This document shows positions 22,275 through 62,217 of a DNA stretch of 64,000 bases, one piece after another. Location of the stretch: the NCBI GenBank assembly GCA_951406725.2, contig OX597814.1, forward strand, positions 120,280,001-120,344,000, read 5' to 3'. The notes below the pieces were generated by a model. The model ran no database searches, was not told the origin of the DNA, and was given only the letters and a program-made list of their open reading frames with translations. Origin of the DNA: Octopus vulgaris (taxonomy: Eukaryota). Position numbers and translations under genes: made by a program. Numbering within the stretch: the first letter of the stretch is position 1; every line of letters begins with the position of its first letter.

Positions 22275-22652
22275 TGAAATGGCAAAAATACGTCACGTTG
22301 TGTTACCGCTACTGTATATAACTCACATTGATATTTATCATTGTTTGATTTCACTTTTTCAATATCAGCGACAGTGGACGCTGGAAAAAGTATAAGTATT
22401 TGTGAAGGAAATCTAATTCTCGGCGACAACTATGATTGTCACACGCTGACGAGAGGTCAATACCTCGAAACTCGAGTCCGTGTGTATCATAAGTTGAAGA
22501 CGGGAAGGATGACTTCCCTTTGCAAATACTGACAGGACACAGAAAGTGTGTCTATGGCCAGCTGGAGGAGTGTGTCCTCCTGGGGCTAAAAACTACAGTA
22601 GCATCCACCCTTAGGGGTTAGCCATATTGAAATGGCAAAAATACGTCACGTT
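22275..22652 (+). mobile_element. HHR-bearing non-autonomous Penelope-like/retrozyme element (family H1), 353-nt unit with 25-nt terminal redundancy, inserted in (TA)n
   Basis: Perfect direct repeat TGAAATGGCAAAAATACGTCACGTT at 22275-22299 and 22628-22652, TA tracts on both sides, intact HHR inside. Confidence 0.82.
22440..22484 (+). ncRNA. Minimal type I hammerhead ribozyme, intact core
   Basis: CACACG-CTGACGA-GAGGT(caat)ACCTC-GAAA-C(tcga)G-TC-CGTGTG. 6-bp stem I (extendable tatgat/atcata), 5-bp stem II, palindromic stem III ACTCGAGT, GUC cleavage after 22478. Confidence 0.92.
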
Positions 22653-24821
22653 ATATATATATATATATTGTAGGGTGTATACGTATGTGTGTGTGGGGTG
22701 TATGAATATGAGTGTGTATTTACATGGCTGGAGAAGAGTACAGGATGTTCACAACATGAACGTCTTAATCAAGATTAACCATGTTATGATAAACGAGTGC
22801 TGTAGAATATTTTATACACCCACACATTGTTACTCATGAATAAATTGTTTTATGTATTTTATGCATATTACTCTTTCAGTTATTTCTCTACGAACTATGA
22901 TAGAGAATTTTGTCATTCAAATAAAACATACGTAATGACACGAAAAGGAAACTGAATTTTGCAATTTCACATAGAAATATATTTTTGAAAAATACACACT
23001 ATAAATATCGTGATGGGTTAAATATAATTCTAATTAAAAAAGTAATTACATTAAAACTCATCAGTTGAACATCACTAATGTCATTACACAATTATATCAC
23101 AAAAGTTTCATCGAAGATTAATACATGCATGTGTGTATCTAAAAATGAATTTGCTTGGGCGTGTGTTTATATGTGTATGAGTGTTTGCGAGAGAAAATGC
23201 TAAAGATGAACGGGAGAAAATAGATTAGTCTTTTAATGCGAGCAGAGAGCTATAATATATTTGATAGAAAGTACACAAATCTGTAAACCGAGATTCTCGT
23301 GTAAGATATGTTCATGAAATAGAAGAATGGTGCATTAAACAGGTAATTGAATGACTTGCACTTTAGATATTCACTACAAGAAAATTTTAAGCTTGATTTT
23401 TTTCTCTTTCTCACGTGCACAGTGCATCACTTCAATGAAAAATAATTCTCCTGCAATTATGATCCGATATCGTTATAAACAATTCGTAATTAAACGATAT
23501 TTACATTTAGAAAGTATTGTTTTATCGTGGTATGCTTACAAAAAAAAAAAAAAAAACAAACCGCTGCATTCGAATCTCACACTGAATTCACTGACAAGAG
23601 AAATGAATTATCTGAAATGTTTACGATATTAGATTAGAATTAAAATATTTCTTCGTTGATATCCCGTTCGGCAATTGTCTTTCTGGTTAAAAGTTGAAGT
23701 AATGAAAATGAAATTAAACACTATTAATGGAGATAAAATTTACAACTAGTATCATGCAAATGGAGCTTTAAATAATGGAAGTATCGAGATAAAGAGAAGT
23801 ATTTTATGTGCAATACAATATTGCATATTTTCCAAAAAGATGCGTATGCACATACTCATTCCAGATAAGAACACTGACTGTTCATCAGATTGTAGAAATC
23901 TTCACACAAACAGTGTATCTCTGTAATAAACAGTAATTCCTATTATAAATGCATACATATATATATTGATTTGATAATTACGAATCGAATTAGACGTCTA
24001 TTAATAAGAATGTTTGTAATAGACAAATGACGTTTATTACGTCGAAATTTACACTTTTCTAATATATTTCTAGCACTACAAGAACGGGCATGCCGAACAT
24101 ATATTGTCTTAGTACACAAAGAAAGCAGCGAGGTTGAAAAAAAAATGTTAATCATAAGAATATATGCGGAAATTGGCATCGTAAATAAATCGCATATATT
24201 ATAATTACAATCTACATAACACACAATAGAATAGAAATGCTTCTCATGAATTGCCTAGATATTTTCTTTAATGAAGATGGCAGAATATCATTTCAAAGCA
24301 AAAAGTGCCTTATTTCTCGGCGAGAAAAATATTGAAATGAAGAAAATTTTAGATATGAACATTAAGTATACACACACACACACACACGCATGCATGCACG
24401 CACGCACTAACGCACGCACGCACACACGCACACACACAACACAAACAAACGCACGCAAACACACACACACACATGAAAACGAGTAACAAAATTGTGTACG
24501 TCAATTGATTCCGACCGTTTCGAGCAAAACCATTCTCATAAGATTACTGCATAGACCAATCATTAAGGACAAGTTATTAATATGGATATTGATGATATTC
24601 ATATCATCAATAGAGTGCAAATATTTACAATGCTTCCGCTGCTAAATTTTATGGCAGAATGAAAAAAGGACAGCCAGAAATTAGTATATAGCTAACAGAT
24701 ATAACTAAATAATGGAAATTTCGCTGTAGCCATTATATATCTATATATTTACACTGTACTTTAACGGTATAAATGAAATTAGGTTAAAACATACTCTGTC
24801 TGCATAAAACTGTCTGCAAGC

Positions 24822-25282
24822 AATAATAAATCTCTGAACGAGATGTAAACAGTAACTGCTCGACAACTTAAAGTATACTAGCCATCTCAATATGGCTAAC
24901 CACTAAGGGTGGGTGTTACTGTAGCTTCTAGCCCCAGAGTTTTTCGAAATCAGTGACGGAAGTTACTCGAAAACAATAGGTATCTGCAAACAGGTCTCCC
25001 TTTCATCGTAAACAGGTGACTGCCGTACGCCGAAGACAGGCAAATACCTAGAAACTGCAGTCCGTGCGTGTCACCTAGGTTTACGAGAGAGGGATGACCT
25101 CCCTTTGCAAATACCAGAAAGGCACAGAAAGTATATCTAAAGCCAGCTGAAGACGATGATCTTCTGGGGCTAGATGCTACAGTAACACCCACCCTTAGTG
25201 GTTAGCCACATTGAGATGGCTAGTATACTTTACGTTGTTGAGCAGTTACTGTTTACATCTCGTTCAGAGATTTATTATTACT
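24822..25282 (+). mobile_element. Family H1 element with 117-bp inverted terminal repeats, ending at (TA)n
   Basis: 24822-24938 is the near-perfect reverse complement of 25163-25279. The interior is homologous to 22430-22650. Confidence 0.85.
25024..25068 (+). ncRNA. Decayed minimal type I hammerhead (core CCGAAGA)
   Basis: CGTACG-CCGAAGA-CAGGC(aaat)ACCTA-GAAA-C(tgca)G-TC-CGTGCG. Palindromic stem III ACTGCAGT, U4->C core change; extended stem I gtaaacaggtgac/gtcacctaggtttac. Confidence 0.78.
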
Positions 25283-27389
25283 ATATATATATATATATAT
25301 ATATATATATATATATATATATATATATATATATATAATATATATATACATATATATATATACATATTGTGACACAGCTATTAAGGAGAAAAGACGGCAC
25401 GCGGTGTAATACGATGGAAAGTAAATAAATAGAAACAAAGAAAATATAGGCTAAGTAGGGAGGTAATGACTTTGTCTTAAAACTAATATATGAATATATA
25501 TATATATATATATATATACACAAAACTTAGTTGGAGTTATATTAAGATATATAAAAAATATTGTAAAATGTCCCACTGGTTCCGCGAAAATGAAACCGGT
25601 ATGACTATATATATATTTAGCCCGTCTATGATCTTACACGTGACATTAAATGTAGTAATTAAATTTCCCTCAAGTCACATGCAATTAATTTTGTGGTTGA
25701 TTTTAACCATGGTCTTTAAAGTCTAGCGTGAGTAGGGAAATAAACGCTACCATCATATATTATATTTGCAAAGTAGCGTATTCCTTTCCTGATTTAAATG
25801 TTTAGGAACAGGAGAAGGGAATTCTTCATTGTACTTGTAGAGGTTTAGGGATTTTTTGAAACAACAGTAGAGTTTATTGCTATCAGCAAAAAGGATGGTA
25901 ATAGTACTTGCATCTAGATGTGGTGATGCAGCGGGTTATGTATTTATTATCAACCTCCAACGAAAGAACTTTCTCTCTGACGAGACTCCCTCGTAGGAAA
26001 ATGCATTTTTTTAATGTTAATATGACCCTTTGCTGGTGACGCGTCAAAATGAAAGCATATTAAACGATAATATATCAATCAATTGATTGCCTATTTCATT
26101 AAGAATTATACTAATAGTAAAATATTAACTGTACTTGTGATTTATTTACGGAATGATACATAAAAATTTCATCCTACACATCAAGAATCTCGCAAGACAA
26201 TGGTAAGCATTCATACATATATGTATGCTTGTATGCATGAGTATTTGTATGAGCGTATATGTGCATATATTAGTGTACCTGTGTATGTGTTCGCATAGAA
26301 ACTTATACAAGAATAGATATATTTAAAAGTGTCATTTTGATATAGTTGATGGTAGGTAGGAGCATTCTAAAATATTCTTCAATGCTTTATTGTGGTGCAA
26401 GCTTACATTGATTCACAAAGATTGAGAAAGGCGCCATATGAACATCAATTGTGATTATGTTATGAAAGGCATTATACTAAAAGCATAAGAATTGCTTATT
26501 TGCTTCTGTATAGAATGCAACGTCAAGGAGAACATTATGTAGAAATGTAAAAACGAATCCGTAATTTTTGTACAATGGAAATCATCTGCGATTTTTGAAA
26601 CAACGGAAAAACAAAACAAAGCAAAATATGATCTCTAGCTATGCATCTGTTACTCTACATTATTATCAACAAAAATTGTCGTGAGACTTCGAATATTCAA
26701 TGCGAACATTGCTTTATTGAACATGACGTAAATTGACAATATATTCACAATAAATGCATATAATCGCCACATATAATGGACGATGTAAATGTATGGAGAA
26801 ATATTCTGATGGAGACTGAATAAATAATATGTAAGAGAATTTAGTGCTCTTGTTGGAGGATAGTTAGCAGCAATCAAAATATATTATTGACAATAATCGA
26901 GTAAAAACTTTATATGCAAAATATATATTTCATCAATTGTAAAACACCCACAAGCGTTTTGATGGAGCTATTGTATCCGAGATTGGTAAGTGAGAATTCA
27001 AATCTGCATGTGACGCCGAGTTTCTACATGTGACAGAGATAAAATCTTTCAATAAGTAAGAAAAAAGAAAACACAATAATAAAAAAGGCATTGATGCGCT
27101 GAAAGGTATAGAATGTCTTCGTATTGTTGAATGAATTTCCAAGTTAATATAGTTAAATGCATTTTCTGGGGGTGTCGTGTCTTCGGATGTGGAGAAATCA
27201 TTTCAACAAAAATAAATCTTAATGAAACATACTTGTCTCTTAAAAATTAAAGTATCCTTTTATTTAAAAATAATACGTAACTGCTAGATTATTTTACACA
27301 CACGCACACGCATATATATATATATATATATATATATATATATATATATATAGAGAGAGAGAGAGAGAGAGAGAGAGTGAGAGAGAGAT

Positions 27390-61467: not shown

Positions 61468-61622
61468 AAGTACAAGGTGTGTTATGAGCATTTATAGAAC
61501 ACGTATCCTATAGAAACTCAACAAACAATTAAAGATGGAGAACACCTAATCTCCATCTTAATTGTTTATTGAGTTTCTATAGGATACGTGTTCTATAAAT
61601 GCTCATAATTCACCTTATACTT
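61468..61622. repeat. Near-perfect hairpin, ~74-bp arms, 8-nt loop, at the edge of a (TA)n-flanked segment
   Basis: ..ttatgagcatttatagaacacgtatcctatagaaactcaa..agatggaga[acacctaa]tctccatct..ttgagtttctataggatacgtgttctataaatgctcataa.. Confidence 0.9.
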
Positions 61623-62134
61623 GTAACATTTTCATATTCGAAACATAGTTACAACAGTAAGCTACCAATGAAATATGATGAATCGTTATTAGCAATCGTC
61701 CTTTGGAATCCCAGAAAATAAAGGATGAAATAAACTCAACCTTTTCTCATATATATATATATATACATACACACATATGCACACACACATACATATATAT
61801 ATATATATATATATATATATATATATATATATATATATATATATATATATATATATATATAAGGATAAAATTAGTTAATTAATTAATTATTTATAATTTT
61901 ACCAAGTTGTTCGGTATGTTAAAAGAACCATTATCGGTAAACTTATACAAAAATTATGTAATTATGAGTATATTTATAATTTGGGTTCAACAAAATTTGC
62001 TTCACCACATGCCGAAATTTAGACATAGAAGTTAAACTACTATTTTACAACCTTAAGATATCTCCCAGACAGCAATACTCAATAAATCACGCAGGTAAAA
62101 AGAAAAAAATACCGAATCTCCTCGACTCTGATTA

Positions 62135-62217
62135 ACTGTATACGCGTTTCGGAGTTAGAGAGAAGTGAAAAATGTAAAATCATATTTCTACTCACTCATT
62201 CTCCTCATTAGTACAGT
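62135..62217 (-). ncRNA. Decayed type I hammerhead (core CTAATGA, G5->A) in a (TA)n-flanked element (~61860-62570)
   Basis: Minus strand: ACTGTA-CTAATGA-GGAG-[~46 nt]-CTCC-GAAA-CGCG-TA-TACAGT. Palindromic ACGCGT stem III. Confidence 0.75.

Follow-up and report, generated by a model that had tools for sequence, protein, structure and literature searches.

Why does the stem III segment of the hammerhead motifs in one stretch of octopus DNA change in sequence from copy to copy, yet stay palindromic? The stretch, hereafter the window, comprises 64,000 nucleotides (nt) of Octopus vulgaris DNA (GenBank assembly GCA_951406725.2, contig OX597814.1, positions 120,280,001 to 120,344,000, forward strand), animal-like and AT-rich (32% GC), and laden with microsatellites. 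An initial annotation had proposed seven such motifs, here assigned to three families (H1, H2, and H3), had considered their stem III segments to be under selection for dimeric folding, and had suggested that distinct palindromes may confine dimerization to the same subfamily. In the reading favored here, to which we assign a probability of roughly 0.78, these are type I hammerheads in retrozyme- or Penelope-type repeats, and their stem III palindrome is kept for double-hammerhead pairing of identical copies.

Self-complementary stem III segments in seven hammerhead motifs

The motifs are as follows:
22440..22484, plus strand: H1a type I hammerhead; intact core; palindrome ACTCGAGT at 22470-22477; predicted cut after C22478
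25024..25068, plus strand: H1b hammerhead; U4C, C.A at 10.1-11.1; palindrome ACTGCAGT at 25054-25061
55743..55787, minus strand: H1c hammerhead; intact core bases, A.G at 10.1-11.1, AUA triplet; palindrome ATCGCGAT at 55750-55757
49977..50066, minus strand: H2a hammerhead; intact core, 59-nt helix II domain; palindrome ACGATCGT at 49984-49991
50700..50789, plus strand: H2b hammerhead, inverted partner of H2a; G8U core; palindrome ACGATCGT at 50775-50782
61313..61403, plus strand: H2c hammerhead; intact core; ACGATTGT at 61389-61396, self-pairing with two G-U
62135..62217, minus strand: H3 hammerhead-shaped motif; G5A core, 54-nt helix II domain; palindrome ACGCGT at 62142-62147

All seven proposed stem III segments were read back from the window, and the five stem I pairs quoted in the annotation were found as well; one segment start, cited as 49983, was off by one (true span 49984-49991, minus strand). 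The near-palindrome ACGATTGT at 61389 self-pairs at eight of eight positions once G-U is counted. The three palindromes ascribed to H1 were likewise all recovered, but H1c is only a distant H1 relative. The six copies carrying an 8-mer have four distinct ones, and the core is intact in H1a, H1c, H2a, and H2c (four of seven).

A first descriptor for type I hammerheads, used without a palindrome term and without a shuffle control, gave 11 matches in the window: all 7 motifs and 4 others that are not palindromic, every one of these 4 having an imperfect stem II as well as a core mismatch. A stricter descriptor returned eight loci in the window (six of the seven, H2b being missed, plus two extras), compared with a mean of 0.82 and a maximum of 4 on 60 local dinucleotide shuffles. 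Since palindrome-blind scans recovered the motifs, with extras at about the level of chance, their palindromes are not a product of selection by the annotator. However, two of the four pairs in each 8-mer (15.1-16.1 and 15.2-16.2) are dictated by the hammerhead itself, so that the tetraloop alone is informative for the palindrome idea. Chance would yield the observed tetraloop complementarity with p = 2.4e-4 to 4.9e-4 (six free pairs, three families), or up to 3.6e-3 with G-U allowed.

An Rfam search of the window at the gathering threshold returned tRNA only and no hammerhead, and no additional full copy emerged from an nhmmer search of the window with alignments of H1 and H2. Repeat pairs were identified by masked blastn; ten other inverted or repeated stretches contained no GAAA followed by a G/C-containing palindrome.

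Paired changes and predicted pairing between copies

When the three H1 copies are compared, both sides change in 3 of the 4 palindrome pairs and in 5 of the 6 stem I pairs; this count is descriptive, three sequences being too few for formal covariation statistics. Compensatory changes were seen in stems I, II, and III, and the palindromes of H1b and H1c are two compensatory transition pairs apart. What really argues for pairing from copy to copy is the central loop pair: it cannot form inside the tetraloop of a monomer, but its bases are complementary in every family. The tolerated variants ACTCGGGT and ACGATTGT correspond to G-U intermediates, the latter being also a CpG transition; as ACGATTGT occurs in both the direct and the inverted H2c copy, the wobble form was likely present in the transposed template. 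At the level of sequence comparison, these patterns support selection on RNA pairing via the palindrome.

In a nearest-neighbor model without tertiary terms, H1 homodimer double hammerheads were favored over two monomers by 16.5-19.7 kcal/mol. The H1a/H1b mixed dimer came out at +0.6 kcal/mol and those with H1c at +20 to +24 kcal/mol relative to two monomers; mixed dimers are, by this model, unlikely. The partition-function probability of monomer stem III (at most 0.014) was not counted, as that model ignores the catalytic core.

Comparable behavior is documented in animals. Metazoan type I hammerheads with a helix III of 1-2 base pairs (bp) and a palindromic loop act as dimers (PMC4209133). 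According to the Forster 1988 model, a helix III of this length is unstable in a single copy, and paired copies form a longer common helix III and exchange stem I strands, with the result that multimers are cut and the unit circle is spared (PMC4209133). Covarying hammerhead families occur within each genome, such as the Aedes families with CGCG and GGCC loops (PMC4209133). Palindromic stem III/loop III sequences are tabulated with two variants each in Schistosoma and Aedes (PMC3088659, Fig S8), and alternative palindromes within one species are described for Schistosoma mansoni and Aedes aegypti (PMC4209133; PMC3088659). The dimer model is reviewed in PMC6765202, where Lunse et al. 2017 is cited; the covered sections of PMC5680766 hold nothing further on palindromes. 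The consensus of Rfam RF00163 also draws stem III as a loop-less palindrome. The palindromic stem III is an already published animal hammerhead trait and not a new recognition code. Thus, of the proposed selection for dimeric folding, the paired changes in palindrome and stem I stood, but the idea itself is in print. H1 is a canonical and not a "minimal" hammerhead, and canonical invertebrate hammerheads of this architecture cleave as monomers (PMC7229834).

If the favored reading is right, two palindromes would join into one helix, and each stem I would be built from strands of both copies. Read-through or tandem transcripts of active source copies would be cut to unit length in this way, and the unit-length RNA would be circularized and then reverse-transcribed by a Penelope-type enzyme. 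The partners would be identical neighbors copied from one circle, so that any palindrome would serve. A palindrome is the only in-register pairing for identical strands, and its letters are free to drift; they would do so by compensatory change, often via G-U intermediates, and incompatibility between subfamilies would be a by-product. The H1 ribozymes can probably do without the dimer but gain speed of cleavage from it; H2 and H3, given no canonical loop 2, are more likely to require it. Most copies in the window are likely fossils.

The H1 family

The H1 hammerheads reside in larger units:
22276..22652, plus strand: H1a, 353-bp retrozyme-like unit plus a 24-bp terminal direct repeat (22276-22299 = 22629-22652)
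24941..25282, plus strand: H1b, near-complete, circularly permuted relative of H1a; 77% over 212 nt
24819..24938, minus strand: inverted copy of the H1b 3′ end, 115/120 identical to 25163-25282; Penelope-type arrangement
55481..55870, minus strand: H1c, distant H1 relative; ends approximate, corresponding to the aligned stretch

H1a stands between (TA)n tracts. H1b is a circular permutation, as its 3′ end aligns to the beginning of H1a; H1a and H1b amount to one unit with a 24-bp redundancy and a circular permutation, and an array is absent within the window. The 3′ domain of H1c is identical to that of H1a at 54/70 positions and to that of H1b at 53/69 (0/300 shuffles as high), and the similarity of its 5′ part to the other copies is not significant. 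Against RF00163, H1a scored 32.2 bits (E 2.6e-5), below the gathering score of 34; the E-value search that found H1a gave no match for H1b, and H1c had no Rfam hammerhead match at E≤10.

The core (CUGANGA, GAAA, UH) is complete in H1a and H1c, and H1b deviates by U4C. Helix I has 6/6 bp in all three copies, helix II has 4/4 bp in H1a and 3/4 in H1b and H1c (mismatch at 10.1-11.1), and helix III has 1-2 bp with a small palindromic loop in each. Loop 2 is the Rfam-like NNAAUA, and stem I has a 3-nt/1-nt internal loop, a putative site of loop 1-loop 2 contact.

The H1 unit is non-coding, 353 bp long, and has a GC content of 42-44% (H1a, 42%). The predicted circular fold of H1a has −117.5 kcal/mol (z −7.3) and that of H1b a z of −6.0, in both cases with 0/60 shuffles as low; the reverse strand of H1a is also strongly folded (z −5.9). 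The hammerhead lies at the tip of a long rod of ∼50 bp, which extends stem I. The rods (22385-22535, 24970-25120, and 55690-55840) have arms that diverged between the H1 copies and are still paired within each. Their energies are −35.6 (H1a), −55.6 (H1b; both 0/300 shuffles), and −19.6 kcal/mol (H1c; 10/300). With double changes at 22/42 pairs of the consensus, the aligned rod arms covary more strongly than the palindrome does.

A conserved 3′ domain (ACACAGA...GCCAGCTG.AG...CTGGGG.TA...TACAGTA) is present in all three copies, at 22530-22630, 25115-25215, and 55600-55700, and outside it the remainder of the copies has diverged. It has no Rfam match and is a candidate promoter or reverse transcriptase (RT)-recognition element.

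Retrozymes are described as non-coding units of ∼170-400 nt with GC below ∼45-50% and a type I hammerhead, and H1 fits this description. Its hammerhead resembles the canonical metazoan type I (Schistosoma, newt, axolotl) in its 6-bp stem I, 4-bp stem II, CAAAUA-like loop 2, 1-2 bp stem III, and palindromic tetraloop, but differs in its sequences and in its common U4C and 10.1-11.1 mismatch variants. Metazoan retrozymes without long terminal repeats (LTR) have units of 350-390 bp in mussels and of 330 and 350 bp in the axolotl (PMC7229834), and H1 is like them in its non-coding 353-bp unit, type I hammerhead, self-paired circular fold, and high copy number. In contrast to retrozyme tandem arrays, H1 appears as single dispersed units beside (TA)n, one of them with what looks like a Penelope-type inverted end. 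At 24819-25282, this canonical-hammerhead retrozyme-like unit with its inverted truncated copy abuts (TA)n. Penelope-like elements have been named as a candidate mobilizer of retrozymes (PMC7229834), and the anatomy of 24819-25282, as judged from its sequence, would support this.

The H1a stretch is present in 20 of 24 listed sequencing runs, spanning nine organism codes, and each of the four runs examined had between 206 and 4709 matching contigs. The variant figures cover 38 listed variable places in these 4 runs and contigs only. Just one listed place, 22475 A>G (share 1-15%), belongs to the 8-nt segment, and this change retains pairing as U-G; none falls in the 12 bases of stem I and 6 in the 14 bases of stem II/loop II, where 22454 A>G together with 22465 T>C is consistent with a compensatory change of stem II. 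U4C and the changes at 10.1/11.1 reach 3-64% by depth in most runs, and the listed variants include ones fitting U.U or C.A at 10.1-11.1; being so common, the "defects" of H1b are partly subfamily traits. As a natural variant, U4C is reported to be slower in vitro but viable (PMC3088659). Six variants between 22447 and 22475 (U4C, 22453 G>C, 22454 A>G, 22465 T>C, 22466 C>A, and 22475 A>G) stand at 15-64% in run X13 and at 1-19% in the other three runs, at low depth and in contigs. This is merely a hint that the non-canonical H1 subfamily is the transcribed one, the RNA label of X13 being a guess. A step in contig depth near the H1a cut site was left unused, as summed contig depth does not equal copy number.

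H2 and H3

H2a and H2b are identical at 163/176 positions and form an inverted pair between (TA)n tracts. H2c has a partial copy nearby:
61067..61227, minus strand: inverted 5′-truncated H2c copy, 88/89 identical to 61350-61438; same ACGATTGT at 61181-61188

This copy holds an eighth occurrence of such a segment, beyond the seven cited, and its tail is 70/96 identical to 50805-50894, beyond H2b. H3 has no second copy within the window; an inverted copy, a tail, and microsatellite features were not seen there, and its helix II is dissimilar to that of H2. Judging from its G5A core, the H3 ribozyme is likely dead.

H2 and H3 have an enlarged helix II, a short helix I, and a palindromic helix III. 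The extra base between positions 9 and 10.1 is absent from all four H2/H3 motifs compared, which is why they are not classed as the minimal type; some published members lack it likewise (PMC4209133). They share the enlarged helix II, the palindromic helix III, and A/U-rich flanks with the hammerheads of Penelope-like pseudo-LTRs, for which the consensus "GAAAN Palind NU H" has been published, but their helix II domain of 54-60 nt is longer than in the examples tabulated there (PMC4209133). H2 also resembles Penelope-like insertions, as described in the literature, in that its motifs are dual and lie on opposite strands, a truncated copy stands inverted, the tail is on one side only, and the sites are microsatellites. 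By these features, H2 looks like Penelope-type end fragments. Scanning 11 of 71 listed short frames near H2/H3 against Pfam gave no match, and among the scanned frames no RT/GIY-YIG frame beside H2/H3 and no coding parent was detected.

Hammerhead-like motifs in outside contigs

A loop-blind pattern applied to outside metagenome contigs gave 126 matches at 122 loci (123 with flanks; three matches in viral contigs were pooled). A full palindrome was present in 15 of 20 distinct hammerhead-shaped motifs, in 3 of 7 intermediate ones, and in 7 of 68 distinct unstructured matches, some of the last being truncated true motifs. In three datasets (L112, L023, and L012), ACAGCTGT is combined with a different stem I/II set each time, and this recurrence with different stems indicates that palindromes are not family barcodes. 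None of the 122 loci resembled the six element stretches of the window at E≤0.01. Canonical hammerheads occur as inverted pairs in L007, L049, and L055, too. In L062, two hammerhead-like motifs lie on the same strand at a distance of 548 bp; their flanks are identical and both have ACCGGT, so that L062 represents an outside-contig tandem with a common palindrome.

Other features of the window

An RT frame of 453 amino acids (27813-29174, minus strand; Pfam RVT_1, E 1.8e-29), 2.5 kb from H1b, was the only Pfam match among 16 proteins scanned; from its motifs, we take it to be of the long interspersed nuclear element type. A segment inside it (28376-28488) has an inverted copy at 29115-29227. 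Inverted-repeat insertions at 34042-34703 (98% over 225 bp), 51815-52241, and 61469-61621 had no detected hammerhead-type palindrome. A tRNA gene (3654-3724, minus strand; Rfam, 66.7 bits) adjoins a dispersed repeat that recurs at 42210-42301 and 60590-60704.

Alternative explanations

Several observations weigh against pairing of identical copies. Three of the seven cores are mutated (U4C in H1b, G8U in H2b, and G5A in H3). The window contains no same-strand tandem with the same palindrome, the closest same-strand pair, H1a and H1b, being 2584 bp apart with palindromes that differ, and no unit-to-unit joint of H1 was listed in the run contigs, which show presence and not absence. No C>G change was among the listed variants at ≥2% in any of the 4 runs, so that the TGCA loop of H1b is unseen in these contigs; a swap from TCGA to TGCA has no G-U route, and contigs lose rare variants, which limits the variant listing. 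Among the 20 outside motifs, 12 have one and the same palindrome, ACAGCTGT, and are not independent. Finally, for retrozyme hammerheads in monomeric form, cleavage rates of ∼0.8 per min (coral) and ∼0.1 per min (mussel) are on record (PMC7229834), and the dimer is therefore not needed for this architecture. A possibility that we regard as unlikely is that H1 acts as a monomer and that its palindrome was inherited from dimer-dependent ancestors or is only occasionally useful. The canonical helix sizes, the Rfam-like loop 2 NNAAUA with a 2-bp stem III, the long rod beyond stem I, which in the predicted fold would lock the monomer, the efficient cleavage by invertebrate monomers (PMC7229834), and the lack of a tandem in the window are all in line with it. 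However, a vestige would not be expected to have its palindrome restored after changes at both loop pairs, the central one included, and the axolotl type, whose stem III has 2 bp and whose helix II has U.U at its base, works far better as a dimer (PMC7229834), while H1 variants fitting U.U or C.A at that base do occur in the run contigs.

That the palindromes are due to chance, to the annotator's selection, or to symmetric binding sites at the DNA level is very improbable and largely refuted. The independent lineages are few, and of 1035 GAAA sites, 21 precede a palindrome of 6 or 8 nt with H after it, 6 of the 21 being in these motifs; yet palindrome-blind scans recover the same set and shuffles yield far fewer loci, and letters that vary while symmetry is kept and G-U-compatible variants are tolerated suit RNA pairing and not a protein site. 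A different proposal is that the differing palindromes act as a selected lock-and-key that stops cross-pairing or cross-cutting of co-expressed subfamilies. Mixed double hammerheads are indeed predicted to be unfavorable compared with homodimers, and there are four distinct 8-mers in six copies. Nevertheless, between H1a and H1b, the penalty from the stem I changes is about equal to that from the palindrome (helices I, −12.8 versus ∼−21.5; helix III, −6.4 versus ∼−15), stem I changes by themselves exclude H1c, ACAGCTGT is reused with different stems in three datasets, H2a, H2b, and H2c are cross-compatible at 8/8 despite differing in stem I, and neutral compensatory drift would give the identical pattern, all of which makes such a lock rather improbable. 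No literature proposing or testing subfamily-specific dimerization was found in a search that left subscription papers mostly uncovered, and supplements may hold data. The suggestion that palindromes confine dimerization to a subfamily is thermodynamically plausible, but no special selection is needed for it. Were palindrome and stem I together a selected compatibility code of co-expressed retrozyme subfamilies, which we consider quite doubtful, each subfamily would cut its own multimers only and escape trans-cleavage or parasitism, a form of self/non-self recognition between selfish RNAs.

Implications

A variable but palindromic helix III and dimeric cleavage entered print between 1988 and 2014; the present finding adds examples and no mechanism. 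No literature match for these families in cephalopods was found, subscription papers being mostly uncovered, and H1 is apparently an undescribed high-copy retrozyme-like family with natural stem III variants, which would lend themselves well to kinetic comparison of monomers, homodimers, and heterodimers. The Penelope-type inverted insertion at H1b bears on which enzyme mobilizes animal retrozymes.

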